64,000 nt of DNA from assembly GCF_963976325.1 (NCBI RefSeq), contig NZ_CAXBJW010000012.1, forward strand, positions 4,630 through 68,629. The letters run 5' to 3'. Made by a program: the position numbers and the translations under genes. The DNA is from an uncultured Pseudosulfitobacter sp. (GTDB lineage Bacteria > Pseudomonadota > Alphaproteobacteria > Rhodobacterales > Rhodobacteraceae). The notes under the pieces were generated by a model that was not told the origin of the DNA, did not search any database, and was given only the letters and a program-made list of their open reading frames with translations. The first letter of the stretch is position 1. Each line of letters starts with the position of its first letter. Below, one piece after another: positions 1 to 29,653 of this stretch.

Positions 1-287
1 ACGTCCCGAAAGCCCATCGTGGTGATCAGCCCCGTCTTGCACAGACGCCGCTCCAGCACCGCGTTGGTGGTGGTCGTGGTGCCATGCACGATCAGGTCCA
101 GCATCGCGGCATCCACGCCCGCGGCATCCAGCGCCGCCAGCACGCCATGCGCCTGATTGTCCAGCGTTGTCGGCACCTTGGCCAGTTTCACGCGGCCCGC
201 GCGGCTGTCGTAATGCACCAGATCGGTGAACGTGCCGCCGACGTCGATCCCGGCAAAGCTGCCGCTGAGTTCGGTTGCGTCTGTCAT
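1..287 (-). CDS. hydantoinase/oxoprolinase A-subunit-like protein, N-terminal part (gene continues beyond left edge)
   Basis: Not in the ORF track because it has no stop in the window. My reverse translation from ATG (complement of 285-287) gives MTDATELSGSFAGIDVGGTFTDLVHYDSRAGRVKLAKVPTT... GIDVGGTFTD is the hallmark N-terminal motif of hydantoinase A/5-oxoprolinase. The start overlaps the stop of the upstream gene (ATGA). Confidence 0.7.
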   Translation of the reverse strand, partial: MTDATELSGSFAGIDVGGTFTDLVHYDSRAGRVKLAKVPTTLDNQAHGVLAALDAAGVDAAMLDLIVHGTTTTTNAVLERRLCKTGLITTMGFRD

Positions 288-3016
288 GTCGTGGCCTTGT
301 TGTTTTGCGCCAGAATGGCGGCGCGCACGCGGTCGGGCGTGGCGGGCAAATGATGGATGCGCGCGCCACTGGCGTGGGCGATGGCGTTCAGAATGGCGGG
401 CGCCGTGGGGATCAGGCAATGCTCGCCCAGCCCCTTGGCCCCGTAAGGACCGTGCGCATCGCCGGATTCGATGATGACCGAGGTGATGCCCGGCACGTCG
501 CCGATGGTCGGGATCAGGTAGTCGTGCAGGTTCTCTGTCCGACCGGGCAGGAATTCCTCCATCAGCGCCAGACCGATGCCCTGCGCAATGCCGCCTTCGA
601 TCTGGCCCTCGACCAGCAGCGGGTTGATCGCGCGGCCCACGTCATGCGCGGCCAGAAACCGCAGCAGTTTGACCGTGCCCAGGGCCATGTCGACCTCAAG
701 CTCAACCATCTGCGCCGCCGTGCCGAACACGGCATAGGGCGATCCCTGCCCTTTTTCGTCCAGCGGCAAGGTGGGCGGGTCATAGCTTTCTTCAACTTCC
801 AGCGCATAGCCGTCGGCGGCGGGCAGGTCGATCCGGCGGCGCACCTCGCCCTCGGACAGCTCAATCGCGCCATCTGCAAACGAAATGACGGCCCCTTCGC
901 CCACATTGCCCATGCGCAAGATCTGCGCGCGCAGCGCCGCGCCCGCCAGCCGCGCGGCGTTGCCGGTGATGAACGTCTGACGGCTGGCCGAGGTTTTGCC
1001 CGCGTCCGGCGTTATGTCCGTGTCCGGCCCCACCAGCGTGACCGCCGACAACGGCACCCCCATCGCCTGCGCAAAAATCTGGGTGATGACGGTGTTCGAC
1101 CCCTGGCCGATATCCACCGCCCCCTGATGCAGCATCAGCACGCCATCCGACGTCACCCCCGCGCGGATCGTCGAGGGGTTCGACATCGACGTGTTGCCAC
1201 AGCCGTACCAGCCGCCCGCGACACCCACGCCGCGCTTGATCTGGGCATGGCCGGCGTTGAAGGCAGCCGCCTCGGCCAGCGCGCGGTCCCATTCGGGTTT
1301 CAGCGCGTCAAAGCAGGCGTCGATGCCCATGCCGGTGTCAAACACCTGCCCCGTGACCGTCGGATCGCCGTTTTGCAGGCAGTTTGCGCGGCGGAAGGCC
1401 AGCCGGTCCATGCCCAGCCTATCGGCCAGCAGGTCGAACAACTGCTCTTGCGCGACGGCGGATTGCGGCACGCCAAAGCCGCGGAATGCGCCCGCAGGGG
1501 CGGTGTTGGTGTGGATGCCAACGCTGTTGGCTTCGTAATCCGGCACGCGGTACGGGCCCGAGGCATGGATCGGCACACGGTTCGCCACCGTCGGCCCCCA
1601 GCTTGCATACGCGCCCGTATTGAACACCCCGTCAAACCGCGCGCCCACGATCCGGCCGCCTGCGTCTGCGCCGATCTTCATGGTAATCTCGGACGGGTGC
1701 CGTTTGGTCGAACTGGCGATGCTTTCGGCGCGGGTATAGGCCATGCGCACCGGTTGTCCCAATTTCCACGCCGCCAGCGCAACATAGGGCTGCGCGGTCA
1801 GGTCCAGTTTCGATCCGAACCCGCCGCCGACCGCCGTGGGCAGAATGCGCACCGCCGCAGGGTCCAGCCCCAGAATACCCGCCAGCGCATCGCGGTTCAT
1901 ATAGGGCGCCTGCGTGCAGCATTGCACCTCGATCCGGTCGCCCACCCTGCGGGCGCTGGCCGCTTCGGGTTCGATATAGCCGTGTTCGATGAACCCCGTG
2001 GAGAAATCGCCCGTGACCACATGCGCCGCCTGCGCCAGCGCCGCATCGGCATCGCCGCGCGCAACAAACCCGCGACACATCACGTTGTCCGCGCGGTCGG
2101 GATGCAGCAGCGCCGCCGCGTCGGCCCCCGTGGGCGTCAGCTGCGCCGTGCGTTCGTCCCAGTCCACCGGAAAGGCACCCATCGCATCCAGCACATCCGC
2201 ACGGCCCACCACGGCGGCAACCGCTTCGCCCTTGAACCGCGCCTCGGATTCGGCAAAGACCGGCTGGTCGATGAACCCCGGAATGACGCCAAACAGGTTC
2301 GCCCCCGGCACGTCACTGGCGGTCAGGATCAGGTCCAGCCCGTTTTCAGCCCGAAACGCCTCAAGATCACCAAACCGGAACCCGGCGCGGTGAAACGGTG
2401 ACCGGATCACCCGCACCGTCAGCGCATCTGCCGGGGCCACGTCATCGCCAAAGCGTTCGCCCCCCGACACCTTGGGCCAGCCGTCCAGCCGCGCCACCCG
2501 CGCGCCGATGCCGCCTTCGGTCAATGTCTTGGTGGTCGCGCTTGCGTCCAGAACCGCCGCGATGATCTTGCGATAGCCGGTGCACCGGCACAGCACGCCG
2601 CCCAAGGCATCGGCCACCCGGTCCTCGGTCAACACTGCGCCCGAGCGCAGCAGCGCCACCGCCGACACCATCATGCCCGGTGTGCAGATCCCGCATTGCG
2701 CCGCCTGATGGCGCTGGAACGCATCCGCCAGCCGCGCGGCGTCGGGGTCGCCCGCCACCAGCCCCGATTGCGTCTCGACCGTCCGGCCCTGCGCCTGACC
2801 GGCAGCGGTGATGCACGCGCACACCGGCGCACCGTCCAGCAGCACCGTGCAGGCCCCGCAATCGCCCGCGTTGCACCCCACCTTGACGTCCAGCGCGCCC
2901 GCGCTGTTGCGCAGCACCTCGGACAGCCGCGCGGTGGCCTGCGCCGGTACGGTGATCGCGTCCCCGTTCAGGGTCAGGGTCAGGGCAATCTGGCCTTTGG
3001 GTTCATCAAGCGACAT
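284..3016 (-). CDS. xanthine dehydrogenase/aldehyde oxidase-family molybdenum hydroxylase, fused [2Fe-2S] small-subunit + molybdopterin-binding large-subunit
   Basis: ORF 284..3106. The N-terminus carries two 2Fe-2S Cys motifs (GCNAGDCGACTV; CGICTPGM...CRCTGY). About 750 aa of MoCo large-subunit-like sequence follows. Start placed at MSLDEPKG (complement 3014-3016), which overlaps the stop of the FAD-subunit gene. Confidence 0.85.
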   Translation of the reverse strand: MSLDEPKGQIALTLTLNGDAITVPAQATARLSEVLRNSAGALDVKVGCNAGDCGACTVLLDGAPVCACITAAGQAQGRTVETQSGLVAGDPDAARLADAFQRHQAAQCGICTPGMMVSAVALLRSGAVLTEDRVADALGGVLCRCTGYRKIIAAVLDASATTKTLTEGGIGARVARLDGWPKVSGGERFGDDVAPADALTVRVIRSPFHRAGFRFGDLEAFRAENGLDLILTASDVPGANLFGVIPGFIDQPVFAESEARFKGEAVAAVVGRADVLDAMGAFPVDWDERTAQLTPTGADAAALLHPDRADNVMCRGFVARGDADAALAQAAHVVTGDFSTGFIEHGYIEPEAASARRVGDRIEVQCCTQAPYMNRDALAGILGLDPAAVRILPTAVGGGFGSKLDLTAQPYVALAAWKLGQPVRMAYTRAESIASSTKRHPSEITMKIGADAGGRIVGARFDGVFNTGAYASWGPTVANRVPIHASGPYRVPDYEANSVGIHTNTAPAGAFRGFGVPQSAVAQEQLFDLLADRLGMDRLAFRRANCLQNGDPTVTGQVFDTGMGIDACFDALKPEWDRALAEAAAFNAGHAQIKRGVGVAGGWYGCGNTSMSNPSTIRAGVTSDGVLMLHQGAVDIGQGSNTVITQIFAQAMGVPLSAVTLVGPDTDITPDAGKTSASRQTFITGNAARLAGAALRAQILRMGNVGEGAVISFADGAIELSEGEVRRRIDLPAADGYALEVEESYDPPTLPLDEKGQGSPYAVFGTAAQMVELEVDMALGTVKLLRFLAAHDVGRAINPLLVEGQIEGGIAQGIGLALMEEFLPGRTENLHDYLIPTIGDVPGITSVIIESGDAHGPYGAKGLGEHCLIPTAPAILNAIAHASGARIHHLPATPDRVRAAILAQNNKATT

Positions 3017-3842
3017 CTGTTTTCTCCACTGCATCCAGCACCGTGCGCCGCACCAGCGTGCGCACCGCATCCATGCGATAGGCGGCACTTGCGCGCACAT
3101 CATCAATCGGCGTCAGCTCGTCCAGCCGCGCCTGACCGACAATGCCGCCCACGTCCCCCAGCGCGGCACCGACCAGCGCCGTTTCCAGCGCGACCAGCCG
3201 GCGCGCCACCGGCGAACAAGACCCGACAGCGATATGGGCACGCACGATCCGCCCGCCTTCGGCGTGCACCACGGCCCCGACCATCGCGATGGAAATCACC
3301 AGATACCGCCGCGCCCCCAGCTTGCGGAATGCGCCGCATCCGGGCGCATCGGGCACATAGATCGCCGTCATCAACTCAGCCGGCCCCAGATCGACCTTGC
3401 GGATACCTTGGATAAAAGCGCCCAGCGGCACCCGCCGCGCGCCATCCGGCCCCGTCAGCTCAACCTCGGCGTCCAGCGCCAGCAGCGCGGGCACGCCATC
3501 TGCGGCGGGCGAGGCGTTGCACAGGTTGCCCGCGACGGTGCCGGTGTTCTGGATCTGCACCGACCCGACCTCGCGCGCGGCCAGCTTCAGACCGTCGAAC
3601 AGCGCCGGCAGGTCGGCGCGCACCACATCCGTCCACGTCGTCGCCGCCCCGATCCGCCAGTGGTCGCCGTCGCGCGTGATCCCGCGCAGCCCCGACACCG
3701 CCGACACGTCGATCATGCGCGCAGGCGCAGGTGCATCGCGCAGGCCGGGATACACATCCGTGCCCCCCGCCAGAACAACGCCACCCCCTTCGGCCAGCAG
3801 GGCCAGGGCTGCGTCCAGTGTCTCGGGCCGATGAAGCGTCAT
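3006..3842 (-). CDS. FAD-binding (medium, CoxM-like) subunit of a molybdenum hydroxylase
   Basis: 278 aa. MTLHRPETLDAALALLAEGGGVVLAGGTDVYPGL is a typical FAD-binding medium-subunit N-terminus. Same operon as, and overlapping, the Fe-S/MoCo gene. Confidence 0.85.
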   Translation of the reverse strand: MTLHRPETLDAALALLAEGGGVVLAGGTDVYPGLRDAPAPARMIDVSAVSGLRGITRDGDHWRIGAATTWTDVVRADLPALFDGLKLAAREVGSVQIQNTGTVAGNLCNASPAADGVPALLALDAEVELTGPDGARRVPLGAFIQGIRKVDLGPAELMTAIYVPDAPGCGAFRKLGARRYLVISIAMVGAVVHAEGGRIVRAHIAVGSCSPVARRLVALETALVGAALGDVGGIVGQARLDELTPIDDVRASAAYRMDAVRTLVRRTVLDAVEKTDVA

Positions 3843-3979: not shown

Positions 3980-3995
3980 TTCGTTTGTGTACGAA
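3980..3995. promoter_or_regulatory. operator-like inverted repeat TTCGT-N6-ACGAA (TTCGTTTGTGTACGAA) in the divergent Mo-hydroxylase/fpr promoter region
   Basis: Read directly from the sequence. It lies just upstream of a sigma70-like TTGACG(4002-4007)-N17-TTATGC(4025-4030) ahead of fpr. A second copy of the same architecture is at 4927-4942. Related CGTTTG-type half sites are at 3883-3896 and 4902-4915. Confidence 0.45.
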
Positions 3996-4046
3996 TGAAT
4001 TTTGACGCAGCATCTGCCCTGAAATTATGCACAACGGAGCATTGCG

Positions 4047-4874
4047 ATGACCGATCTTGTCCTTGATCCCATCCTGCGGGGGCAACCCGCCGGATTCGAA
4101 ATTCCCGCCGCCTGCTTTGGCCTGACGGTGACCGAGGTGCAGCATTACACCGACCGGTTGTTCCGCTTTCGGGTGACCCGCCCCGCCACCTTCCGCTTCC
4201 GGTCGGGCGAGTTCGTGATGATCGGCCTGCCCAATGCCGACCGCCCCGTCATGCGCGCCTATTCCATCGCATCGCCCGCATGGGACGACACGCTGGAATT
4301 CTATTCGATCAAGGTCCCCGACGGCCCGCTGACCGAGCATTTGCAGAACATTCAGGTGGGCGACACGGTCCTGATGCGCAAGAAACCCACCGGCACGCTG
4401 GTGCTGGACGCGCTGACCCCGGGCAAGCGGCTGTGGATGCTGTCCACCGGCACCGGTATCGCGCCTTTTGCCTCGCTGATTCGCGATCCCGAAACCTATG
4501 ACCGCTTTGACGAGGTGATCCTGTGCCACTGCTGCCGCGAGGTGGCCGAGCTGACCTATGGCGACGAAATCACCACGGCCACGCTGAACGATCCGCTGGT
4601 TGGCGAACTGGCCCAAGGCCGCCTGCGCCTGTTCAACACCGCCACCCGCGAGGCGTACAAAGTGCAGGGGCGCATCACCGACATGATTCGCACCGGCACT
4701 ATATATACGGCCCTGGGCGTGCCCCCGATCACCGCCGCAGACGACCGCGTGATGATCTGCGGGTCGATGGAGATGCTGGCCGATTGCCGCGCGATCTGTC
4801 TTGATCTGGGGCTGGAAGAAGGGGCCAACAACCGCCCCGCTGAATTCGTAGTCGAAAAGGCGTTTGTGGACTGA
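4047..4874 (+). CDS. fpr: ferredoxin-NADP+ reductase
   Basis: 275 aa. Contains RAYSIAS (FAD-binding RxYS motif) and MLSTGTGIAPFASL (NADP-binding GTGIAP motif). GGAG RBS 7 nt upstream of the ATG. Confidence 0.85.
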   Translation: MTDLVLDPILRGQPAGFEIPAACFGLTVTEVQHYTDRLFRFRVTRPATFRFRSGEFVMIGLPNADRPVMRAYSIASPAWDDTLEFYSIKVPDGPLTEHLQNIQVGDTVLMRKKPTGTLVLDALTPGKRLWMLSTGTGIAPFASLIRDPETYDRFDEVILCHCCREVAELTYGDEITTATLNDPLVGELAQGRLRLFNTATREAYKVQGRITDMIRTGTIYTALGVPPITAADDRVMICGSMEMLADCRAICLDLGLEEGANNRPAEFVVEKAFVD

Positions 4875-4926
4875 TCCATGACCACAACCCGCGCAAAACT
4901 GTTGACACACAAACGGGTGTCGTGCG

Positions 4927-4942
4927 TTCGTATACAAACGAA
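4927..4942. promoter_or_regulatory. operator-like inverted repeat TTCGT-N6-ACGAA (TTCGTATACAAACGAA) upstream of the Hnr-like gene
   Basis: Same 5-6-5 architecture as 3980-3995. It is preceded by TTGACACACAAACG (4902-4915), which contains a perfect TTGACA. Confidence 0.45.
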
Positions 4943-4993: not shown

Positions 4994-6505
4994 GTGACCG
5001 AGACCGCCAGCAAACGCCCCCAGACCGCCAAGCCGGAGAAAATCCGCTGCGACGCCTGCCCGGTCATGTGCTACATCGCCGACGGCCGTTCGGGCGCCTG
5101 CGACCGATACGCAAACGAGGGCGGCGAGCTGGTGCGTCTGGACCCGCTGACCATTCTGGAAAACCGCGAGGACACGCCGCTGGTGCCCTTCCTTGACCGC
5201 GAATGGGATGGCGATCTGGTCACCGGCGACCAGACGTTCATCACCGCCGTCGGGTCGGGCACCACCTATCCCGACTATAAACCCGCGCCCTTCATCGTCG
5301 CCTCGAAATCCGCGGGCGTCGACATGATCACCGTCGTGACCGAGGGCATCTTTTCCTATTGCGGGGCCAAGGTGAAAATCGACACCGACCGCCACCTTGG
5401 CAGCGAATGCGCGCCTGTCCGTGCCGATGGCGAGGTGATCGGCCACGTCTCGACGTCCGAATACGGATCGCAAATGCTGTCGCTGGGCGGGGTCAATCAC
5501 CTGACAGGCGGATCGAAGAAAGAGGGGCGCGCGACCTGTTCGGCCCTGCTGGCGCTGTGCAACGGCGAACAGGTTGCGCTGACCATCGACAACGGTGCCG
5601 ACCTTGAGATTGCTGCCGGACAGGCCCCCATCGTCAACGGCACGCCCGAGCAACGCATGCGCGTCGGCTGCGGGTCGGCCACGGTGGGCATGTTCGCGGC
5701 ACAGTGGCAGGGGCTGGTGGACGAGGTTGTCGTCGTCGATGACCACATCACCGGCGTCATGTCCGAACATCAGGCGGGCAAGGTCATCGGCTGGGCCCCC
5801 TCGGGCATCAAGATCAAGGGCCGCCGCTCGACCCCGGGACGTTACTTTCAAGTGGCCGAACCCGGCACCGGCTGGGGCGGCACCGATCTGACCGATCCGC
5901 TGGACATTCTGGACACGTGGAAACCCGATCAGGCGCGTGCCGGCCTGTCGCTGCTGATGGTGTCGACCACCGGCGAAAACGCCGCCTACTACGAGCTGAA
6001 CGACGATCTGGTGCCGGTGCAAAAGGACATGCCCGCGCGGCTGCTGCCCTCGGTCCAACGGATCGAGGAAAACTGCGAACCTTCGCTGACCTCGGTGCTG
6101 TTCATGGCCGGTGCGGGCGGGTCGTTGCGGTCTGGCGTCACGGAAAACCCCGTGTCGCTGACCCGTTCGGTGCAATCGCGGCTGACCCGTGTGACATCGG
6201 GCGGCGCGCCGGTGTTCATCTGGCCGGGTGGCGGCATCACCTTTATGGCAGACGTCACGCAAATGCCGAAAAATGCCTTTGGCTATGTGCCCACGCCCGC
6301 GCTGGTAGCGCCCATTGAATTTACCATGACTGCGGCGGATTACGCCGCGCTTGGCGGGCATATAGATTACGTCATGCCGCTGGAAGACGCCCTGCGCGGC
6401 CTTAAGGGGCGGCAGAACGATCACCGCCTGTCCGGCCAACGCTCGGAAAACCGCAAGACCGGCGCGCCGTGGCCTATATCGTCGGACACACGGGGGCCGA
6501 AATGA
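4994..6505 (+). CDS. 6-hydroxynicotinate-reductase-like Fe-S protein (function unproven)
   Basis: ORF 4922..6505. I prefer the GTG at 4994 because a GGAG lies 8 nt upstream; the start is uncertain. The N-terminal Cys cluster CDACPVMCYIADGRSGACDRY is compatible with a 4Fe-4S site. The overall sequence resembles proteins I recall being annotated as 6-hydroxynicotinate reductase. Confidence 0.6.
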   Translation: MTETASKRPQTAKPEKIRCDACPVMCYIADGRSGACDRYANEGGELVRLDPLTILENREDTPLVPFLDREWDGDLVTGDQTFITAVGSGTTYPDYKPAPFIVASKSAGVDMITVVTEGIFSYCGAKVKIDTDRHLGSECAPVRADGEVIGHVSTSEYGSQMLSLGGVNHLTGGSKKEGRATCSALLALCNGEQVALTIDNGADLEIAAGQAPIVNGTPEQRMRVGCGSATVGMFAAQWQGLVDEVVVVDDHITGVMSEHQAGKVIGWAPSGIKIKGRRSTPGRYFQVAEPGTGWGGTDLTDPLDILDTWKPDQARAGLSLLMVSTTGENAAYYELNDDLVPVQKDMPARLLPSVQRIEENCEPSLTSVLFMAGAGGSLRSGVTENPVSLTRSVQSRLTRVTSGGAPVFIWPGGGITFMADVTQMPKNAFGYVPTPALVAPIEFTMTAADYAALGGHIDYVMPLEDALRGLKGRQNDHRLSGQRSENRKTGAPWPISSDTRGPK

Positions 6506-7386
6506 GCTGGCAGGAAACCCCAACGGCGCACCTGTCGCCTGACGGTCATCTGCGGCTGGTCCATGGCCCGATTGACCTGATCGTGGTGGCCGAAGGGTCG
6601 GCACAGGCGGTGCGCGCTGCCTATCTGCGCGCGCGGGATGCCTTTGCGCCGGTGCTGGGCGATCTGGTGGCCGAGCTGCCGCGTTTGCGCAAATGCGACG
6701 GGCCTGCGCCCACCGGCGTGATCGCACGGAAGATGCAGCAAGCCGTCGCCCCCTTTGCCCCCACCTTTGTCACCCCGATGGCCGCCGTCGCCGGTGCCGT
6801 GGCCGACCACATCCTGACCGCGATGCTGGCCCCGAGCCATCGTCTGACCCGCGCCCATGTGAACAACGGCGGCGACATTGCCCTGTGGACCGCGCACCAG
6901 CCCCTGCGCCTTGCGATCTGCGAGGACCCGACCACCGCCAGCGCAGGCGCGCAAGCCGACATCGGGCCCCATGACGGCATCGGCGGCGTGGCCACATCGG
7001 GCTGGCGGGGCCGGTCGCATTCGCTGGGCATTGCCGACGCGGTGACCGTGCTGGCCGCCACTGCGGCGCAGGCCGACGCCGCCGCCACGCTGATCGCCAA
7101 CGCCATCGACCTGCCCGACCACCCCGCCATCACCCGCGCCCCCGCCAACAGCCTGTCGCCCGACAGCGATCTGGGCGCGCGGCGGGTCACCACCGATGTT
7201 GCCCCCCTGCCCGGTACGGATGTGACCGCCGCACTGGATCACGGGGCCGCCATCGCCACAAATTTTGCCGCACGCGGACTGATTGTCGGCGCATGTCTTG
7301 CCTGTCAGGGCCAAAGACGCATGATCGGCACAACCAAGACCGCCCGCACCACGCAGGGCCAGCCCAAGGACCTTATCCATGCCTGA
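6502..7386 (+). CDS. UPF0280-family (ApbE-like) protein
   Basis: ORF 6469..7386. Start placed at MSWQETP (ATG 6502), overlapping the upstream stop (ATGA). The segment HLRLVHGPIDLIVVAEG...FVTPMAAVAGAVADHI resembles UPF0280 proteins. Confidence 0.6.
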   Translation: MSWQETPTAHLSPDGHLRLVHGPIDLIVVAEGSAQAVRAAYLRARDAFAPVLGDLVAELPRLRKCDGPAPTGVIARKMQQAVAPFAPTFVTPMAAVAGAVADHILTAMLAPSHRLTRAHVNNGGDIALWTAHQPLRLAICEDPTTASAGAQADIGPHDGIGGVATSGWRGRSHSLGIADAVTVLAATAAQADAAATLIANAIDLPDHPAITRAPANSLSPDSDLGARRVTTDVAPLPGTDVTAALDHGAAIATNFAARGLIVGACLACQGQRRMIGTTKTARTTQGQPKDLIHA

Positions 7387-7963
7387 ACCCGTCATCCGCA
7401 AAACGGCAATCCTGACCGAAACCATCTATCACGAGGGCGGCCCCGCCCCCGAAACACCCCTGCGCCGCGCCGCTTGCATGACCGTCATCGCGAACCCCTT
7501 CGCAGGGCGTTATGTCGAGGATATTCAGGGCTTTATGGAAGATCTGAAACCGCTGGGCGCGCAGATGGCACAGGATCTGATCGCCGCTCTTGGCGGTGAC
7601 GCGTCCGCCATTCAGGGCTACGGCAAAGGCGCCATCGTCGGCACCAACGGCGAACTGGAACACGGCGCGCTGTGGCATGTGCCCGGCGGCTATGCCATGC
7701 GCGACACCATTGCCGACAGCATGGCCATCGTGCCCTCGACGAAAAAGATCGGCGGACCGGGCACCCGTCTGGACGTGCCGATCACCCACACCAACGCGTC
7801 CTATGTGCGCAGCCATTTCGACGCGATGGAGGTCGGCCTGTCCGACGGACCCAAGGCCGACGAAATCCTGCTGGTGCTGGTGATGAGCACCGGCCCCCGC
7901 ATTCACGCCCGCGTCGGTGGTCTGGCCGCCGAGGACGTCAAGGGCGAGGACGGCTTGCGGTGA
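7379..7963 (+). CDS. amino acid synthesis family protein (PF06684-like), paralog 1
   Basis: 194 aa. Contains NPFAGRYVEDI...QGYGKGAIVGTNGELEHGAL...YVRSHFDAMEV...RVGGL, typical of the 'amino acid synthesis' family. Overlaps the upstream gene by 8 nt. Confidence 0.7.
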   Translation: MPEPVIRKTAILTETIYHEGGPAPETPLRRAACMTVIANPFAGRYVEDIQGFMEDLKPLGAQMAQDLIAALGGDASAIQGYGKGAIVGTNGELEHGALWHVPGGYAMRDTIADSMAIVPSTKKIGGPGTRLDVPITHTNASYVRSHFDAMEVGLSDGPKADEILLVLVMSTGPRIHARVGGLAAEDVKGEDGLR

Positions 7964-8538
7964 ACCTGCGCCGGATCATAACGCTGGTCGAAGAGACACG
8001 CACCGAAATGGGCCAACCCGTTTCGCCCCCCGCACGGCGCGCACTGGCGGCGGCGGTGATCGTGAACCCCTATGCGGGGCGTTATGTGGACGATCTGGCC
8101 GAGCTGTTCGACACCGGCGCACAGCTTGGCGCGCTTCTGGGCATCGAGGCGCTGACCGCTTTGGGCTGTGCGGCGGGCGATGTTCAAGGCTACGGCAAAG
8201 CAGCCCTCGTGGGCGAAGACGGCGAGCTGGAACACGCCGCCGCCCTGCTGCACCCGACGCTGGGCGCGCCCCTGCGCGACGTGCTGGGCGGCGGCAAGGC
8301 GCTGGTGCCCTCGTCCAAGGCGATGGGCGGACCGGGCAGCGTGATCGACGTGCCGCTGGGCCACAAGAACGCCGCTTACGTGCGCAGCCACTTTGACGGG
8401 ATGCGCCTGCAACTGCCCGATGCCCCGCGGCGCGGGGAAATCGTGGTGGCCGTGGCCCTGCAACTGGCCGGGCGACCCAATCCGCGCGTCGGCGGGCTGA
8501 AACACAGCGAAGTCACCGGCGCGGACGGGCTGCGCTAG
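7960..8538 (+). CDS. amino acid synthesis family protein (PF06684-like), paralog 2
   Basis: Reading frame of ORF 7672..8538. GTG start at 7960 overlaps the upstream TGA (GTGA). NPYAGRYVDDL...QGYGKAALVGEDGELEHAA...YVRSHFDGMRL...RVGGL is clearly paralogous to the preceding gene. Confidence 0.7.
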   Translation: MNLRRIITLVEETRTEMGQPVSPPARRALAAAVIVNPYAGRYVDDLAELFDTGAQLGALLGIEALTALGCAAGDVQGYGKAALVGEDGELEHAAALLHPTLGAPLRDVLGGGKALVPSSKAMGGPGSVIDVPLGHKNAAYVRSHFDGMRLQLPDAPRRGEIVVAVALQLAGRPNPRVGGLKHSEVTGADGLR

Positions 8539-8560
8539 AGACACCACCAAGGAGGTCAAC

Positions 8561-9631
8561 ATGACGAAATTCGTTCGAAATGCCTGGTACGTGGCCGCGT
8601 GGTCGACCGAGATCGACGACGACCTGCGCCGCTTTACCATCCTTGGTGACCACGTCGTCATGTACCGCAAATCCGACGGCGGCGTTGTCGCACTTGAGGA
8701 TCGCTGCCCGCACCGCCTGTTGCCGCTGTCCAAGGGCAAGCGCGTGGGCGACAACGTGCAATGCGGCTATCACGGGCTGACCTTCGACTGTTCGGGCGCC
8801 TGCGTGCGGGTGCCGGGCCAGACCAACCTGCCCAAATCCGCCTATGTCGAGGCGTTTCCCATCGAGGAACGCCACGGCATCGTCTGGATCTGGATGGGCG
8901 ACCCGGCCCGCGCCGACACGTCCAAAGTGTTCGACATGCCCGAATTCACCGACCCCGCCTGGAAGGTCCACCACGGCGACGCGCTGCATCTGAAATCGAA
9001 CTATCTGAACGTGGCCGAAAACCTGGTTGATCCGGCGCACGTCAGCTTTGTCCACCCCACCACGCTGGGCAACGCCGCATCCGAAAACGTCCCCGTACAC
9101 GTGCAGACCGAAGGCGAGGCGATCCTGGCCTGGCGCTGGATACGCGACGCGGAACCGATTGGGTTTTTCAAAGGGTTCGGCGGATTCACCGGCAACGTGG
9201 ACCGCTGGCATTACTACTACCTTTACACCCCCTGCACCGCCGTCATCGACTTTGGCTCGGCCCCCGCCGAGGACGCCATTGCCGAGGACGAACGCAACAA
9301 GGGCGTGCGCATCTTTGCCCTGCATTTCATCACACCGGTGACCGAAACCTATTCCATCGACCGCTGGATGCACATCCGCAACACCGCGCTTGACGATCCC
9401 GACGCAGAAGCGACCATGGACAAGATGTTCCGCGTGGCTTTTCAAGAGGACAAAGAGATCCTTGAAGCCGTGCAAGAGGAAGAAAACCGCCCCGCCAAAC
9501 GGCGTCCGATCCGCATCGCCATCGACAAGGGCCCGCTTGTCTACCGCAAGCGGATCAACGACCTGATCGAACTGGAACGGACCGAAGATCTCGCAAGCGA
9601 TCCGTCGCCTGCCTTTGTTTATCACGACTAA
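8561..9631 (+). CDS. Rieske [2Fe-2S] aromatic ring-hydroxylating/demethylating oxygenase, alpha subunit (VanA/phthalate-family type)
   Basis: 356 aa. Rieske motif CPHRLLPLSKGKRVGDNVQCGYHG. AAGGAGG RBS upstream. Confidence 0.9.
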   Translation: MTKFVRNAWYVAAWSTEIDDDLRRFTILGDHVVMYRKSDGGVVALEDRCPHRLLPLSKGKRVGDNVQCGYHGLTFDCSGACVRVPGQTNLPKSAYVEAFPIEERHGIVWIWMGDPARADTSKVFDMPEFTDPAWKVHHGDALHLKSNYLNVAENLVDPAHVSFVHPTTLGNAASENVPVHVQTEGEAILAWRWIRDAEPIGFFKGFGGFTGNVDRWHYYYLYTPCTAVIDFGSAPAEDAIAEDERNKGVRIFALHFITPVTETYSIDRWMHIRNTALDDPDAEATMDKMFRVAFQEDKEILEAVQEEENRPAKRRPIRIAIDKGPLVYRKRINDLIELERTEDLASDPSPAFVYHD

Positions 9632-9691
9632 CCGGCGTAAGACCGGATCACGACCCCCGCAGCACTGCTGCCACCAATAGGAGAGACCCCG

Positions 9692-10912
9692 ATGACCCTG
9701 ACGCGACGCACCCTGATCGCCGCTGCCACCGCCCTTGTGATGGCGCCCGGCTTTATGTCTGGGGCCGCACTGGCCCAAGACACCATCAAGATCGGCGAGA
9801 TCAACCATTACAAACGCATGGCCGCCTTTGCCGAGCCCTATAAGATGGGCATCGAACTGGCGCTGAAAGAGATCAACGACGCGGGCGGTGTGCTGGGCAA
9901 ACCGCTTGAATTCATCTACCGCGACGATCAGGGCGACCCCGCCGAAGCGGTCAAGATCGCAGAAGAGCTGATGACCCGCGACGGGGCCGTCATGCTGACC
10001 GGTTCGATCCTGTCGCACGTCGGTCTGGCGCTGTCGTCCTTTGCCGCCGAAAAGGGGTATCTCTACCTGGCCGCCGAACCGCTGGCCGACAGCCTTGTGT
10101 GGCAGTCAGGCAACCCCAACACCTTCCGGCTGCGCGCCTCGACGTGGATTCAGGCCGCGATGCTGGCCGAAGAGGCCGCCAAAACCGACGCGATCAAATA
10201 CGCCACCATCGCGCCCAACTATGCCTATGGTCAGGATGCCGTCGCAGCGTTCAAGGAAAACCTGAAACGGCTGAAGCCCGAGGTTGAATTCGTCGCCGAA
10301 CAATGGCCCGCCCTGTTCAAGATCGACGCCGGCGCCGAGGTGCAGGCGATCGAACGTGCCAAGCCCGACGCGATCTATAACGTGACCTTTGGCACCGACC
10401 TTGCCAAATTCGTGCGCGAAGGCGGCGACCGTGGCCTGTTCGATGGCCGCCCCGTCTATGGTCTGCTGTCCGGCGAGCCCGAATATCTGGAACCGCTGGG
10501 CGACGAGGCCCCCGAAGGCTGGTTCGTGACCGGCTATCCCTGGTACGCCTTTGACAACGGCACCCCGGAAAAAGCGTTCGTAGACGCCTATATCGCGGAA
10601 ACCGGTGAAACGCCCAAGATCGGCTCGTTGGTTGGCTATCTTGACGTGCTGTCCATCGCCGCCGCCATCGAAAAGGCCGGCGCCACCGACACCGCGTCGC
10701 TGATCGCCGCCTTTGAGGGTCTGGAAATCCCCGACACGCCCATCGGCACGCTCAGCTACCGCGAAATCGACAACCAGTCGAACATGGGCGCCTATGTCGG
10801 CACCCTCGCGTTGGAAGACGGCAAGGGCGTGATGGTCGACTGGACCTACAAATCGCCCGACGGCTACATGCCCTCCGACGAAGAAGTCACAGCGATGCGC
10901 CCGGCCGAATAA
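9692..10912 (+). CDS. ABC transporter substrate-binding protein (branched-chain amino acid/Liv-type family)
   Basis: 406 aa. Signal peptide MTLTRRTLIAAATALVMAPGFMSGAALAQ. Followed by Liv-type permease and ATPase genes. Confidence 0.85.
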   Translation: MTLTRRTLIAAATALVMAPGFMSGAALAQDTIKIGEINHYKRMAAFAEPYKMGIELALKEINDAGGVLGKPLEFIYRDDQGDPAEAVKIAEELMTRDGAVMLTGSILSHVGLALSSFAAEKGYLYLAAEPLADSLVWQSGNPNTFRLRASTWIQAAMLAEEAAKTDAIKYATIAPNYAYGQDAVAAFKENLKRLKPEVEFVAEQWPALFKIDAGAEVQAIERAKPDAIYNVTFGTDLAKFVREGGDRGLFDGRPVYGLLSGEPEYLEPLGDEAPEGWFVTGYPWYAFDNGTPEKAFVDAYIAETGETPKIGSLVGYLDVLSIAAAIEKAGATDTASLIAAFEGLEIPDTPIGTLSYREIDNQSNMGAYVGTLALEDGKGVMVDWTYKSPDGYMPSDEEVTAMRPAE

Positions 10913-10925
10913 GCCAGCCGCAACA

Positions 10926-10953
10926 GGCAGGTGGGCAAGAACGCCCGCCTGCC
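10926..10953 (+). other. intercistronic stem-loop after the substrate-binding gene
   Basis: GGCAGGTGGGC-aagaac-GCCCGCCTGCC. An 11-bp stem with one G-U pair and no U-tract. Confidence 0.4.
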
Positions 10954-11012
10954 ACGCCCCTTCCTGACATGACACACCGCTTGGCGGTGACCACCCAAGG
11001 ATTATCTTCCGC

Positions 11013-12872
11013 ATGGCCTTTTTCTTTGCACAGCTTCTGACCGGCCTCGCCAATGCCTCGTCTTTGTTCCTCGTGGCGTCGGGCCTGTCGCTGATCTTTG
11101 GCGTCACCCGCATCGTGAACTTTGCCCACGGGTCGTTCTATATGCTGGGGGCTTTTGTCGGCGTTACCCTGATGAACGTGCTGCCCGGCACGGTCGGCTT
11201 CTGGGGCGCGATCCTGATCACCGGCCTTGTGGTGGGGGCCATCGGCGCCTTTGTCGAAATGGTGGTGCTGCGCCCGATCTACCGCGCGCCGGAGCTGTTC
11301 CAACTGGTCGCCACCTTTGGCGTGATCCTTGTCATTCAGGACCTTGCCCTGATGATCTGGGGCGCCGAGGACCGCATGGGCCCCCGCGCCCCCGGCCTGC
11401 GCGGCGTCTGGCGCATCTTTGGCGAACCGGTGCCCAAATACGATCTGGTGATCATTGCCATCACCCCGTTCATCCTGTTCGCCCTGTGGTATCTGATCAC
11501 CAAGACACGGGTCGGCGTGCTGGTCCGCGCCGCGACCCAGGACCGCGAGATGGTCGGCGCGCTTGGCGTCAATCAGGCGTGGCTGTTCACCGGCGTCTTT
11601 GCCCTTGGCTCGGCGCTGGCCGGCTGGGGCGGTGCGTTGCAACTGCCCAAGGGCGGGGCGGACCTGTTGATGGACTTTAACATCATCGGCGCGGTCTTTG
11701 TCGTGGTGGTCATCGGCGGCATGGGGTCACTGCCCGGCGCGTTTATCGCCGCTGTGCTGATCTCGGTGCTGAACGTCTTTGGCGTCACCTACCTGCCGCA
11801 ATCCACGCTGGTGCTGATGTTTGTCGTCATGGCCGTTGTGCTGATCATCCGCCCCTACGGCCTGCTGGGCCGCGAGGAAGTCGCGGGCGAACACGGACAG
11901 GTCGGCGCGCCCGAAACCCCGATCCGTCCCTATGGCACCACAGGTCAGATGCTGGTCGCCGCCTTGCTTCTGGCACTGGCCGCCCTGCCCCTGTTTGCCG
12001 ACCGCTTCATGCTGATCCTGCTGATCGACATGGTGGTCTTTGCCCTGTTTGCCGCATCGCTGCACTTTATCCTGGGCTCTGGCGGGCTGGTCAGCTTTGG
12101 CCACGCGGCGTTCTTTGGCGGCGGGGCCTATGCCGCGGCGCTGCTGGTCTTTCACCTTGATACGCCCATGGAGGTCGCATTCCTGTTTGCCCCCCTTGCG
12201 GCCGGTCTGCTGGCGCTGGGGATCGGCTGGTTCTGTATCCGCCTCAGCGGGGTCTATTTTGCCATGCTCACGCTGGCGTTTTCGCAACTGGTCTGGTCGA
12301 TGGCCTATCAATGGCGCGACCTGACGCGGGGCGATGACGGGCTGGTCAACATCTGGCCCTCGGCATGGCTCAGCGACACCATCCCGTTCTATTACTTCAC
12401 GCTGGCCTTTGGCGTCGGCGGCATCCTTGTGCTGCGCCACATCATCCATTCGCCATTCGGCTACGCCCTGCGCGCCGGCCGCGACAGCCCGCGTCAGGCC
12501 GAGGCGATGGGGATCAACGTCAAACGCGTGCAGCATGTGGCCTTTGGCCTTGCCGGTGTGATGGCGGGTCTGGCGGGCGGTATCTTTGTCTTTTCCAAAG
12601 GGTCGGTGTTCCCCACCGAACTGGAAATCGCCGCCTCGTTCGACGCGCTGATCGTCGTGTTCCTGGGCGGTGTCAAAACTCTTGCCGGTGGCGTCGTCGG
12701 CGCGGGCTTTATGACCGTCGTCGAAGACTGGCTGACCCGCCTTGAATACTGGCGGCTGGTGCTGGGTCTGGTGATCATCGCCGTGGTCATCATCGCGCCC
12801 GAAGGCATCGTCGGCACCCTGCGCAGCACGTGGGCCAAATTCCGCGGCACCAACGAAGAGGCCGTCAAATGA
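11013..12872 (+). CDS. branched-chain amino acid-type ABC permease, fused LivH-like + LivM-like domains
   Basis: 619 aa, highly hydrophobic. The N-terminal half is LivH-like (VNFAHGSFYMLGAF). The C-terminal half is LivM-like (SFGHAAFFGGGAY). Confidence 0.85.
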   Translation: MAFFFAQLLTGLANASSLFLVASGLSLIFGVTRIVNFAHGSFYMLGAFVGVTLMNVLPGTVGFWGAILITGLVVGAIGAFVEMVVLRPIYRAPELFQLVATFGVILVIQDLALMIWGAEDRMGPRAPGLRGVWRIFGEPVPKYDLVIIAITPFILFALWYLITKTRVGVLVRAATQDREMVGALGVNQAWLFTGVFALGSALAGWGGALQLPKGGADLLMDFNIIGAVFVVVVIGGMGSLPGAFIAAVLISVLNVFGVTYLPQSTLVLMFVVMAVVLIIRPYGLLGREEVAGEHGQVGAPETPIRPYGTTGQMLVAALLLALAALPLFADRFMLILLIDMVVFALFAASLHFILGSGGLVSFGHAAFFGGGAYAAALLVFHLDTPMEVAFLFAPLAAGLLALGIGWFCIRLSGVYFAMLTLAFSQLVWSMAYQWRDLTRGDDGLVNIWPSAWLSDTIPFYYFTLAFGVGGILVLRHIIHSPFGYALRAGRDSPRQAEAMGINVKRVQHVAFGLAGVMAGLAGGIFVFSKGSVFPTELEIAASFDALIVVFLGGVKTLAGGVVGAGFMTVVEDWLTRLEYWRLVLGLVIIAVVIIAPEGIVGTLRSTWAKFRGTNEEAVK

Positions 12873-13639
12873 CCGAAATCCTGCGCGTCGAGAACCTGAA
12901 GAAAAGCTATGACGGATTTCTAGCCGTCAACGGCGTGTCCTTTGCCGTGCAACAGGGCGAGCTGAAGGCGCTGATCGGCCCCAACGGGGCGGGCAAATCC
13001 ACCTGTTTCAACATGCTGATGGGGCAGTTGAAACCCACCGGCGGCCAAGTGTTTCTGGACGGCGAAAACGTCACCGGCCAGCGCCCCCGCGACATCTGGC
13101 GCAAGGGGGTTGGCCGCACGTTCCAGATCACCGGCACCTACCAGTCGATGAGCGTGATCGAGAACGTGCAGATGGCGCTGATCAGCCACCACCGCAAACT
13201 GTTCTCGATGCTGCCCCGCGCGTGGAAACTGTACCGCGACGAAGCGTTCGAGTTTCTGGAAACCGTGTCGATGGCCGATCAGGCCGACCGGCCCTGTTCG
13301 GTTCTGGCGTATGGCGATCTGAAACGGCTGGAACTGGCGATTGCGCTGACCCACCGTCCGCGTCTGCTGCTGATGGATGAACCCACCGCCGGCATGGCCC
13401 CTTCGGCGCGGATCGCGCTGATGCAACTGGTCGCGGATATTGTACAGGATCAGGGCGTTTCAGTCCTTTTTACCGAACACGACATGGATGTCGTCTTTGC
13501 CCATGCGCATCACATCATGGTGCTGAACCGGGGCGAGCTGATCGCAGATGGCAGCGCCGCAGAGGTGCGTGAAAACCCGCAAGTCCAAGAGGTGTACCTG
13601 GGCGGTGGCACGTTGTTCAAGGAGGCACAGGATGCTTAA
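12869..13639 (+). CDS. ABC transporter ATP-binding protein (LivG-like)
   Basis: Start at MTEILRVENL (ATG 12869, ATGA overlap with the permease stop). Walker A GPNGAGKST. LLLMDEPTAGM. Confidence 0.9.
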   Translation: MTEILRVENLKKSYDGFLAVNGVSFAVQQGELKALIGPNGAGKSTCFNMLMGQLKPTGGQVFLDGENVTGQRPRDIWRKGVGRTFQITGTYQSMSVIENVQMALISHHRKLFSMLPRAWKLYRDEAFEFLETVSMADQADRPCSVLAYGDLKRLELAIALTHRPRLLLMDEPTAGMAPSARIALMQLVADIVQDQGVSVLFTEHDMDVVFAHAHHIMVLNRGELIADGSAAEVRENPQVQEVYLGGGTLFKEAQDA

Positions 13640-14333
13640 TATCGAAGGCATTCACAGCTATTACGACAAGGCCCACATCCTGAACGGGTTGTCCTTTCAG
13701 ATCGGGCGGGGCGAGGTCGTGGCGTTGCTGGGCCGCAATGGTGCGGGCAAATCCACAACGATGAAATCGGTCATGCAACTGGTGCGCCCCCGCACCGGCC
13801 GCGTGATGTTTCAGAACACCGATCTGGTCGGCGCCCCCGCTTTTCGCGTCGCCAAATCCGGCATCGGATACGTCCCCGAAGACCGCCGCATTTTCACCGA
13901 CCTGACCGTGATGGAAAACCTTGAAGTCGGCCGCCAGCCGCCGCGCGACGGTGCGCCGACATGGACGGTCGAACAGCTTTTCGACATCTTCCCGAACCTG
14001 GCCGAACGCCGCAGCAACCGCGGCAAACATATGTCGGGCGGCGAACAGCAGATGCTGACCATCGCGCGCACGCTTATGGGCAACCCGTTGCTTTTGCTGC
14101 TGGACGAGCCGTCCGAAGGCATCGCGCCGGTGATCGTCGAAGAGATGGCCAACACCATCCTCAAGCTCAAGGCCCAAGGGCTGACAGTGGTGATTTCCGA
14201 GCAAAACCTGCACTTTGCCCGCGCCGTGGCCGACCGTGCCATCATCATCGAAAGCGGCGAAAAGAAGTTCGACGGCAGCTTTGCCGAGCTGGAGGCCCAC
14301 CCCGAAATCCGCGATGCCTATCTGTCGGTCTGA
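13632..14333 (+). CDS. ABC transporter ATP-binding protein (LivF-like)
   Basis: Start at MLNIEGIHSYY (ATG 13632). Walker A GRNGAGKST. Signature MSGGEQQML. Confidence 0.9.
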   Translation: MLNIEGIHSYYDKAHILNGLSFQIGRGEVVALLGRNGAGKSTTMKSVMQLVRPRTGRVMFQNTDLVGAPAFRVAKSGIGYVPEDRRIFTDLTVMENLEVGRQPPRDGAPTWTVEQLFDIFPNLAERRSNRGKHMSGGEQQMLTIARTLMGNPLLLLLDEPSEGIAPVIVEEMANTILKLKAQGLTVVISEQNLHFARAVADRAIIIESGEKKFDGSFAELEAHPEIRDAYLSV

Positions 14334-14402: not shown

Positions 14403-14849
14403 TTGAGCGAGATCACACAGCCGCGCACCAGCGACGAGCATGGGTATGTGCTGGACGCGCAAATCGGCTTTTTGCTGCGCAAAGCCTATCAGCGCAATTC
14501 GACGATCTTTCTGGAACAAGTGCCGGGCAAACTGACCACGACCCAGTTTTCAATCATGCACCGGCTGGCCGAGGACGGGCCGATGTCGCAAAACCTGCTG
14601 GGCCGTTCCGTTGCCATGGACGGTGCTACGACCAAGGGCGTGGTGGACCGCCTGATTGCACGCGATCTGCTGGCCACCCGCCGTGACCCCGCCGACCGCC
14701 GCCGCCATCTTGTTTCGCTGACGCCCCGTGGGGTCAAGCTGATCGACGAGGCCGTCGATGCCGCGATCCGTGTGACCGAAGAAACCCTTGCCCCCCTGCG
14801 CGAGCGCGAGAAAGAAACGCTGCTGCGGTTGCTGGCCAAGATCATCTAG
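14403..14849 (+). CDS. MarR family transcriptional regulator
   Basis: 148 aa with a TTG start. TTTQFSIMHRLAEDGPMSQNLLGRSVAMDGATTKGVVDRLIARDLL is a typical MarR winged HTH. Confidence 0.85.
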   Translation: MSEITQPRTSDEHGYVLDAQIGFLLRKAYQRNSTIFLEQVPGKLTTTQFSIMHRLAEDGPMSQNLLGRSVAMDGATTKGVVDRLIARDLLATRRDPADRRRHLVSLTPRGVKLIDEAVDAAIRVTEETLAPLREREKETLLRLLAKII

Positions 14850-24087: not shown

Positions 24088-24188
24088 GCGTGGGTGACGG
24101 CCAAAATCGACTTTTCCCCTATGAGACAGGCGAATTTTGCAACAAACTTTGTGCAATTACCGCGCAATTTTTTTGGAAAGGGCAATTC

Positions 24189-28213: not shown

Positions 28214-28347
28214 TAAATATATGTTCTTTTTCGTGTGATCCAAAGAACCCGGCGGATTAACAGGAGCGGAATTGGAAAAGTTTGGTTTTGCCAATTCAGC
28301 CATATCCCGTTATTGAAGAAAAATATCCAAATAACAAGAGCAGTATC

Positions 28348-29652: not shown

Positions 29653-29653
29653 G

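Follow-up and report, generated by a model that had tools for sequence, protein, structure and literature searches.

We report that four consecutive genes at positions 4994-8538 of a 64,000-nucleotide stretch of DNA from an uncultured Pseudosulfitobacter sp. (contig NZ_CAXBJW010000012.1; the whole stretch is called the window in what follows) are the conserved core of a known breakdown route for nicotinate (vitamin B3), comprising one recognisable reductase, of the 6-hydroxynicotinate reductase (Hnr) family, and three helpers. Among common vitamins and osmolytes are nicotinate and other pyridine carboxylates related to it. Their reductive route through 1,4,5,6-tetrahydro-6-oxonicotinate (THON) has been elucidated in Azorhizobium and a single anaerobe, and several of its genes have no assigned role. 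The cluster in the window is a variant of this known pathway and gives rise to testable predictions about two families of orphan proteins, UPF0280 and PF06684; and we consider it reasonably probable that the four genes form the reductive core of a regulon for nicotinate (pyridine-3-carboxylate) catabolism, with the full flow of reactions proposed below.

All four open reading frames (ORFs) and their junctions bear out a preliminary description of this DNA, which had presented the genes as translationally coupled: they overlap by ATGA at 6502-6505, by ATGCCTGA at 7379-7386 and by GTGA at 7960-7963, and encode proteins of 503, 294, 194 and 192 amino acids (aa; genes 1 to 4, respectively).

4994-6505, forward strand: gene 1, hnr; Hnr family, short form without an N-terminal 2x[4Fe-4S] domain, with a four-cysteine (Cys4) Fe-S motif
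6502-7386, forward strand: gene 2, UPF0280 protein of the ApbE/Ftp superfamily (NF003322); predicted to transfer flavin to Hnr or otherwise serve its maturation
7379-7963, forward strand: gene 3, PF06684 (AA_synth/DUF1185) paralog A; Pfam score 235 bits, A clade
7960-8538, forward strand: gene 4, PF06684 (AA_synth/DUF1185) paralog B; Pfam score 225 bits, B clade

The family assignments suggested in that description held as well: gene 1 shows Hnr-family homology across its full length, gene 2 exceeds the UPF0280 cut-off and its model has an ApbE fold, and genes 3 and 4, both far above the PF06684 cut-off of 27 bits, are 45% identical, where about half of the positions had been estimated by eye.

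Homologs of gene 1 fill at least 8000 clusters at 90% identity, those with names in NCBI and UniRef being called 6-hydroxynicotinate reductase, and 279 family representatives at 50% identity score E<1e-30 against it, with alignments spanning residues 15-470. The Cys4 motif, C19-x2-C22-x3-C26-x9-C36, is found in all aligned family members having residues there; C226, T113, T297 (in GWGGT) and T444 (in EFTM) are near-invariant, and T116 is also conserved. No Pfam or NCBIfam model matched gene 1, and a sequence search of the PDB found no relative. From an alignment of 50 sequences, AlphaFold gave a confident model of Hnr (pLDDT 82.6, pTM 0.81), and Foldseek matched it to nothing in the PDB at E <= 0.001; Hnr therefore appears to have a fold without a solved representative. 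We place the start at GTG 4994, which has GGAG 8 nt upstream, in preference to ATG 5066, because C19 and C22 are then kept and the family alignment and the GGAG fit better. The ATG 5066 start, equal to a 480-aa RefSeq start, was rejected since both of these invariant Cys would be lost with it. For close Hnr homologs, the RefSeq models are 472-483 aa long and start at the Met inside CDACPVMC (as at 15167 in L001, a syntenic plasmid).

A scan of species-representative genomes confirmed at least 586 Hnr relatives, and the best 80 of these at least 586 loci were kept (64-87% identity), which makes this a survey of the window's own Hnr branch biased to close relatives (loci of at least 64% identity). 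Neighbouring genes were found by tblastn with the window proteins, arrangements were counted in 80 sequences with enough downstream DNA, and the remaining ORFs of the loci were clustered to find further neighbours. The hosts belong to the Alphaproteobacteria (including Bradyrhizobium and Afipia), the Gammaproteobacteria (Granulosicoccus, Marinobacter) and the Acidobacteriota. Whether Hnr, UPF0280 and two PF06684 proteins occur together elsewhere had been raised in the preliminary description; they do so across phyla, most often in exactly the order seen in the window, and Hnr is followed by UPF0280 and then PF06684 in about 65 of 80 loci.

50 of 80 loci: Hnr-UPF0280-PF06684A-PF06684B
14 of 80 loci: Hnr-UPF0280 with a single PF06684
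7 of 80 loci: Hnr-UPF0280 only

Hnr adjoins UPF0280 in 74 of 83 sequences (the window and 82 loci), and median intergenic gaps in the module are at most 11 nt across loci. The FAD and MoCo genes of a Mo enzyme adjoin hnr in most loci, usually directly upstream and on the same strand, and an enamidase ortholog (PDB 2vun, E=9.5e-113) is present in 38 of the 82 loci. Isochorismatase-family genes, which may be nicotinamidase-like, lie in several loci, those of Acidobacteria among them, and acyl-CoA dehydrogenase genes in some. In the Bradyrhizobium/Afipia-type loci (L056, L069, L070, L073, L074, L077 and L080; at about 5600-9800) the XDH-like enzyme is displaced by a NicAB-like hydroxylase, a 1187-aa MoCo/cytochrome c fusion with a small [2Fe-2S] subunit, encoded upstream of hnr on the opposite strand. 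Because two non-orthologous nicotinate hydroxylases serve the same Hnr module, 6-hydroxynicotinate has good contextual support as the common intermediate.

The sequence of steps from nicotinate through 6-hydroxynicotinate and THON to ring opening is established for Eubacterium barkeri and for the aerobe Azorhizobium caulinodans, and an Hnr ortholog of Bradyrhizobiaceae SG-6C, reported to be 42% identical to the purified E. barkeri Hnr, lies in a published nicotinate cluster (PMC3511419). The clusters of A. caulinodans ORS571, Bradyrhizobium and SG-6C (PMC3511419) resemble that of the window in that Hnr is followed by UPF0280, PF06684, a transporter of the ATP-binding cassette (ABC) class and branched-chain-amino-acid (BCAA) type, and a MarR regulator (seen in L056, L070, L073 and L080); the Bradyrhizobium/Afipia orthologs are 67-71% identical to gene 1, and in these loci as in the window UPF0280 and PF06684 precede a binding protein, a permease and two ATPases. 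Since these loci read Hnr-UPF0280-PF06684-ABC-MarR, the two unknown proteins of the published cluster are almost certainly UPF0280 and PF06684. A palindromic operator is likewise common to the window and the Azorhizobium/Bradyrhizobium-type loci. The latter differ in having one PF06684 gene against two in the window, and a NicAB-like hydroxylase against an enzyme of XDH type with an FAD subunit; in the Afipia locus L080 there is an enamidase within 10 kb, whereas the window has hydantoinase-type HyuAB, a Rieske oxygenase and a ferredoxin-NADP+ reductase (FNR) instead.

These comparisons bear on how novel the module is. That three of its four proteins have no demonstrated function, and that gene 1 lacks any Pfam or NCBIfam model or structural match in the PDB, might suggest a fundamentally new four-protein system unrelated to known pathways, and the preliminary description had spoken of an undescribed enzyme system. 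That view has to be given up: the cluster and the chemistry of its pathway are already in print (PMC3511419), the neighbouring genes are orthologs of nicotinate dehydrogenase and enamidase, and annotation pipelines already name the product of gene 1. An unrelated new system, which we regard as highly improbable, was rejected as contradicted by the context survey of the loci. What that description had proposed of the chemistry, a reductive step on a hydroxylated N-heterocycle, agrees with both family and context, which point to the conversion of 6-hydroxynicotinate to THON. No characterised pathway assigns the functions of genes 2 to 4. The presence of such a set in an aerobe, from which that description had argued for an undescribed system, has a precedent, because the aerobe A. 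caulinodans uses the THON route.

Beyond the branch of the window (at least 62% identity), the Hnr family has a second branch, 30-47% identical, most members of which bear an extra N-terminal 2x[4Fe-4S] ferredoxin domain (for example P0125 and P0192) that is absent from gene 1, where the protein begins about 18 residues before the Cys4 motif. Named members of this Fer4-Hnr branch come from Deltaproteobacteria, Thermodesulfobacteriota, Spirochaetes and Chloroflexota, which suggests anaerobic lineages. The branch was sampled by six neighbourhoods, with Hnr about 42-45% identical, and all six read Fer2-FAD-MoCo-enamidase-Fer4Hnr-ApbE-like; PF06684 is present in four of the six, and an aldehyde dehydrogenase gene lies nearby in four. 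Because both branches show the pairing of Hnr with an ApbE-like protein, the pairing predates their split. Two natural fusions, P0128 (982 aa) and P0132 (969 aa), join an NAD(P)H-binding module of Fer4, Fer4_20 and Pyr_redox_2 domains (GltD/DPD-like) to Hnr, and their domain make-up suggests that NAD(P)H may be the ultimate electron donor in some Hnr lineages.

The purified E. barkeri Hnr (EC 1.3.7.1) belongs to the same family over the catalytic region and has the same invariant Cys4 motif, and nicotinate dehydrogenase and enamidase neighbours are common to most relatives of the window module. Its reported cofactors are a covalently bound flavin, a single [2Fe-2S] cluster and a pair of [4Fe-4S] clusters. 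With the Fer4 domain taking the [4Fe-4S] pair, elimination would leave the [2Fe-2S] cluster to the universal Cys4 motif, and the window Hnr would then carry a [2Fe-2S] cluster and flavin only. Candidate residues for flavin attachment, judged by conservation, are C226, T113, T297 and T444. The window host is presumably aerobic. The electron donor is probably NADPH by way of the FNR, and not a ferredoxin of fermentative metabolism.

Gene 2 scores 334 bits against the UPF0280 equivalog NF003322 (cut-off 290), its homologs carry the newer Pfam family PF27030 'AbpE_bact', and 2o34 is its sole match in a PDB sequence search. Its structural model (pLDDT 89.6) matches 2o34 at 8e-10 in Foldseek, as well as 29 chains of the FAD:protein FMN transferases ApbE, Ftp and FmnB at E <= 1e-3 (4e-5 for the best) with probability about 1.0 and TM 0.3-0.5; as modelled, gene 2 is by its fold a member of the ApbE/Ftp superfamily, with the fold of the characterised transferases (Escherichia coli Ftp, Vibrio cholerae ApbE, Listeria FmnB). 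Among 43 close homologs of gene 2, 27 match Pfam ApbE below threshold (E=1.7e-4 at best), the only family to recur, while the UPF0280 neighbour of a Fer4-Hnr matches it at E=1.9e-5, with 24.8 bits against a cut-off of 25.6. The invariant motifs are TPMAAVAGxxAD, NNGGD, ATSG (A164-T-S-G167) and ADAAAT (D192-A-A-A-T196). By eye, the N-terminus, MSWQETPTAHLSPDGHLRLVHGPIDL, contains no hydrophobic signal segment or lipobox, so the protein should be cytoplasmic. From its modelled fold and its position, UPF0280 is predicted to attach the covalent flavin of Hnr; a dedicated flavinylation factor is the most economical explanation, because an enzyme with covalent flavin is almost always encoded beside a protein with a flavin-transferase fold. 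Literature searches (for UPF0280, and for ApbE with hydroxynicotinate) found nothing linking UPF0280 with Hnr.

Gene 3 matches solved DUF1185 structures, 3byq (BB2672) at 9e-59 and 2qtp (SPO0826) at 4e-46. In a neighbour-joining tree of PF06684 rooted on a copy from the Fer4-Hnr branch, clade A holds 51 first-position copies and 2 single-copy genes, and clade B holds 51 second-position copies and 20 of the 22 single-copy genes. Since first and second copies make two clean clades, the A/B duplication is old and B is the core copy. Proteins of this family form hexamers, as trimers of dimers, and are associated with BCAA-type ABC transporters (PMC2954203), as they are here; an A/B hetero-hexamer is plausible in view of these hexamers.

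The pathway for trigonelline passes through an enamine or formyl-dicarboxylate. The preliminary description had said that PF06684 lacks a demonstrated function, which needs tempering, for one member of the family, TgnF of Acinetobacter baylyi, has been partly characterised and is the only functional precedent: it is reported to stimulate the succinate-semialdehyde dehydrogenase of the trigonelline pathway (PMC7913881, citing Perchat et al. 2018), an effect short of a defined reaction. TgnF and the window proteins both belong to pyridine-carboxylate catabolism, in which ring opening leads through an enamine or formyl-dicarboxylate to a semialdehyde; in the window, two diverged paralogs are coupled to Hnr and UPF0280, not to a semialdehyde dehydrogenase. 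An aldehyde dehydrogenase gene adjoins PF06684 in L088 and is clustered with it in L083, L084 and L089. From the TgnF precedent and the intermediates of that pathway, we place the PF06684 pair just after ring opening, where, with low confidence and by analogy, it may act in enamine deamination, tautomerisation or 2-formylglutarate decarboxylation. A small cupin gene lies in each of the two Fer4-Hnr loci without PF06684 (L085, 12448-12903; L087, 1512-1835), and the cupin might substitute for PF06684 there.

The tight coupling of the four genes could also mean that UPF0280 and both PF06684 proteins are stoichiometric subunits of a heteromeric reductase, replacing the lost 2x[4Fe-4S] domain in aerobes. 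Conserved stop/start overlaps across phyla with the short gaps given above, the ancient and strictly ordered A and B paralogs and the hexameric state of PF06684 proteins (PMC2954203) would all suit such a complex. But UPF0280 and PF06684 also accompany the long Fer4-Hnr, in which the ferredoxin domain is retained; PF06684 is missing from some loci, from which it follows that it is not essential to the reductase; neither UPF0280 nor PF06684 has conserved Cys/His clusters suggesting a redox cofactor; and the E. barkeri Hnr was reportedly purified active and described from one gene (Alhapel et al. 2006). We therefore judge a multisubunit reductase improbable, and retain the reading in which UPF0280 serves the maturation of Hnr and PF06684 acts later in the pathway.

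The redox partners and importer that the preliminary description had noticed around the module are indeed there, as an XDH-family enzyme, an FNR-type reductase, a Rieske oxygenase and an ABC importer, and together with two operator-like sites and a regulator they make up the rest of the cluster in the window.

1-287, reverse strand: 5' part of hyuA (N-terminal 95 codons; hydantoinase/oxoprolinase A, caprolactamase-alpha-like), cut by the window edge
284-3016, reverse strand: nicotinate-dehydrogenase-like subunit, 2x[2Fe-2S] fused to molybdopterin domains (XDH family; Fer2, Fer2_2, Ald_Xan_dh_C, MoCoBD_1, MoCoBD_2)
3006-3842, reverse strand: FAD-binding subunit of the Mo dehydrogenase (Pfam FAD_binding_5, CO_deh_flav_C)
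3982-3997, no strand assigned: operator-like palindrome CGTTTGTGTACGAATG between the divergent FAD-subunit and FNR genes
4047-4874, forward strand: FNR, Fpr type, no Fe-S domain (FAD_binding_6, NAD_binding_1; NCBIfam PRK10926 below cut-off)
4925-4940, no strand assigned: operator-like palindrome CGTTCGTATACAAACG, 69 nt before the start of hnr
8561-9631, forward strand: VanA/DdmC-like Rieske mono-oxygenase alpha subunit (Pfam Rieske, VanA_C)
9692-14333, forward strand: ABC importer, branched-chain-amino-acid type (Peripla_BP_6, BPD_transp_2, ABC_tran; synteny with L001 and L002), made up of a binding protein (9692-10912), a fused permease (11013-12872) and ATPases (about 12869-13639, and 13632-14333)
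14403-14849, forward strand: MarR-family regulator at the cluster end (Pfam MarR); candidate binder of the palindrome

A linked nicotinate-dehydrogenase-like enzyme with Mo, FAD and [2Fe-2S] components is accordingly present in the window (284-3842), on the strand opposite to hnr. Its Mo subunit scores 227+200+112 bits, summed, against the three split subunits of the E. barkeri nicotinate dehydrogenase (3hrd_A/B/D), which is more than the 345 bits of the best single chain, an aldehyde oxidoreductase. The hyuA start overlaps the stop of the Mo-enzyme gene (ATGA), and the hyuA translation in the window is nearly identical to the N-terminus of HyuA on plasmid L001. Viewed within 10 kb of the module, HyuAB is found in 9 loci (among them L001, at 6655-10394, L003-L008 and L020) and enamidase in 38, with both together in none; the whole 64-kb window has no enamidase homolog (tblastn E>0.3). 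Within the hydantoinase A/B lactam hydrolases (caprolactamase, 5-oxoprolinase, N-methylhydantoinase), the best NCBIfam match of full-length HyuA and HyuB is caprolactamase alpha/beta, at 486 and 295 bits, far below the equivalog cut-offs of 1000 bits. Mutual exclusion with enamidase suggests that the substrate would be THON, the lactam of which HyuAB would open in an ATP-dependent manner.

The Rieske gene begins 22 nt past gene 4, is preceded by a strong ribosome-binding site (AAGGAGG) and is probably in the same operon as the module; the best PDB match of its product is dicamba O-demethylase DdmC, at 4e-47, and the enzyme might act on trigonelline or another methylated pyridine carboxylate. 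This raises an alternative in which the chemistry is the same and the substrate another: an N-methylated or otherwise substituted pyridine carboxylate (for example trigonelline, N-methylnicotinate) would be degraded by a variant of roseobacter type, the N-substituted tetrahydro-oxo lactam would resist enamidase and so be opened by ATP-dependent HyuAB, in the way that N-methylhydantoinase and caprolactamase act on theirs, and the Rieske enzyme would act on the ring or the methyl group. The loci in which HyuAB stands in for enamidase are confined to Roseobacter, Roseibium and Marinobacter, seven of the nine having a Rieske gene; the Rieske protein is of demethylase type, with NdmA as well as DdmC among its matches; the family best matched by HyuAB is caprolactamase; and the hosts are marine, such osmolytes being common in the sea. 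Four enamidase-bearing loci, however, also have a Rieske gene, plain nicotinate clusters contain close orthologs of both the Mo enzyme and Hnr, a literature search for a Rieske demethylase of trigonelline or homarine found none, and the one characterised trigonelline pathway reportedly works in another way (Perchat et al. 2018). We consider a substituted substrate unlikely, if worth keeping in view, and continue with nicotinate as the favoured one.

Regulation of the cluster probably involves the 16-bp palindrome CGTTnGTATACnAACG, the two window copies of which bracket the FNR gene. With up to two mismatches allowed, 32 of 83 loci contain it, 60 times in all, against 0-6 occurrences in shuffled controls; L001, L002 and L005 have an exact counterpart of the copy upstream of hnr in the same place, and near-copies precede hnr in Bradyrhizobium and Afipia loci. 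The inspected sites are mostly intergenic and precede hnr or genes for the FAD subunit, FNR, MarR or transporters, and a MarR homolog is present in 42 surveyed loci. The palindrome is probably the operator of the cluster's MarR regulator, and the FNR gene, being flanked by operator sites, would belong to the same regulon. The palindrome is also present in L037, L056, L070, L073, L080 and others. No sigma-70-like promoter was found upstream of hnr.

Genes past 14.9 kb in the window are unrelated to the cluster. Gene order is conserved in the closest records, which are plasmids of Pseudosulfitobacter (89% identity) and Sagittula stellata E-37 (87%). Farther along the window, at 24090-25613 and 28282-30721, lie a gene for a protein with RTX repeats (HemolysinCabind) and one for a partition ATPase resembling ParA, and ORFs without Pfam matches follow each; these genes and the plasmid matches suggest that the window derives from a plasmid or chromid of a roseobacter.

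Taken together, the cluster might work as follows. Nicotinate would be imported by the ABC system, and might also be made from a methylated precursor by the Rieske oxygenase, and the divergently encoded Mo/FAD/[2Fe-2S] dehydrogenase would hydroxylate it to 6-hydroxynicotinate. Hnr would reduce this to THON, electrons passing from the Cys4 Fe-S cluster to the covalent flavin and coming probably from NADPH via the adjacent, co-regulated FNR, which is a candidate electron input for Hnr, for the Rieske oxygenase, or for both. UPF0280, cytoplasmic and with an ApbE fold, would be the dedicated maturation factor attaching the flavin to Hnr. In the variant of the window, the THON lactam would be opened by ATP-dependent HyuAB (caprolactamase/oxoprolinase family) in place of enamidase; and after ring opening PF06684 A and B, probably as a mixed hexamer, would act on the enamine or 2-formylglutarate intermediate by deamination, tautomerisation or decarboxylation towards glutarate semialdehyde, analogous to TgnF with its semialdehyde dehydrogenase. 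The observations underneath are the family memberships, the gene order and co-occurrence, the ApbE fold and the mutually exclusive distribution of HyuAB and enamidase; the identity of the substrate, flavin transfer by UPF0280, the electron route and the roles of PF06684 and HyuAB are deduced.

Several observations weigh against this scheme. The only purified Hnr is about 40% identical to gene 1, a figure obtained by way of the SG-6C ortholog (PMC3511419), and it has the extra 2x[4Fe-4S] domain missing from the window protein. The cluster contains no ferredoxin gene to connect FNR and Hnr, nor a VanB-type reductase gene. Flavin transfer by UPF0280 meets the difficulty that gene 2 lies below the threshold of Pfam ApbE (PF02424), with no match; its product, without a visible signal peptide, should moreover be cytoplasmic, whereas characterised ApbE proteins are typically extracytoplasmic. 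Its motifs AAVAGxxAD, GGD, ATSG and DAAAT fall in register with E. coli Ftp, where ATSG and DAAAT pair with STSG and DAWDT, yet this hhalign alignment is non-significant (probability 0.6, E=0.094). In Ftp structures, ATSG and DAxxT are presumably motifs of the FAD/Mg2+ site. Known ApbE targets bear an SGAT-type motif within extracytoplasmic domains, and Hnr, the presumed client, has no FMN_bind-type SGAT motif; the near-invariant C226 would fit equally well an autocatalytic Cys-flavin link without a transferase. About 15% of related loci lack PF06684, as do two of the six of the Fer4-Hnr branch. Lastly, 36 loci have neither enamidase nor HyuAB inside 10 kb, so that the exclusivity of the two rests on partial genome views. 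In its most specific form, in which UPF0280 attaches FMN to a Ser/Thr of Hnr (T297 or T444), a PF06684 A/B hetero-hexamer processes the enamine or 2-formylglutarate, and HyuAB is an ATP-driven THON lactamase, the proposal is a tentative one, and doubtful as a conjunction of all three.

New here are the fold of UPF0280 and the prediction drawn from it, the PF06684 A/B duplication, the unmatched Hnr fold, and the variant of the window with its HyuAB, Rieske oxygenase, FNR and operator. These findings fill gaps in a known pathway and leave current knowledge standing: the nearly constant company of Hnr and an ApbE-like protein would explain the source of the covalent flavin of Hnr, the survey narrows the role of PF06684 to steps near ring opening and points to an ATP-dependent replacement for enamidase, and the conserved operator for a MarR-type regulator is usable for regulon prediction. 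If the predictions are true, UPF0280 would provide the first case of an ApbE-type flavin transferase acting in the cytoplasm on a defined client, the orphan PF06684 family would gain its first reaction, and HyuAB would define an enamidase-independent branch of nicotinate/trigonelline catabolism in marine bacteria.

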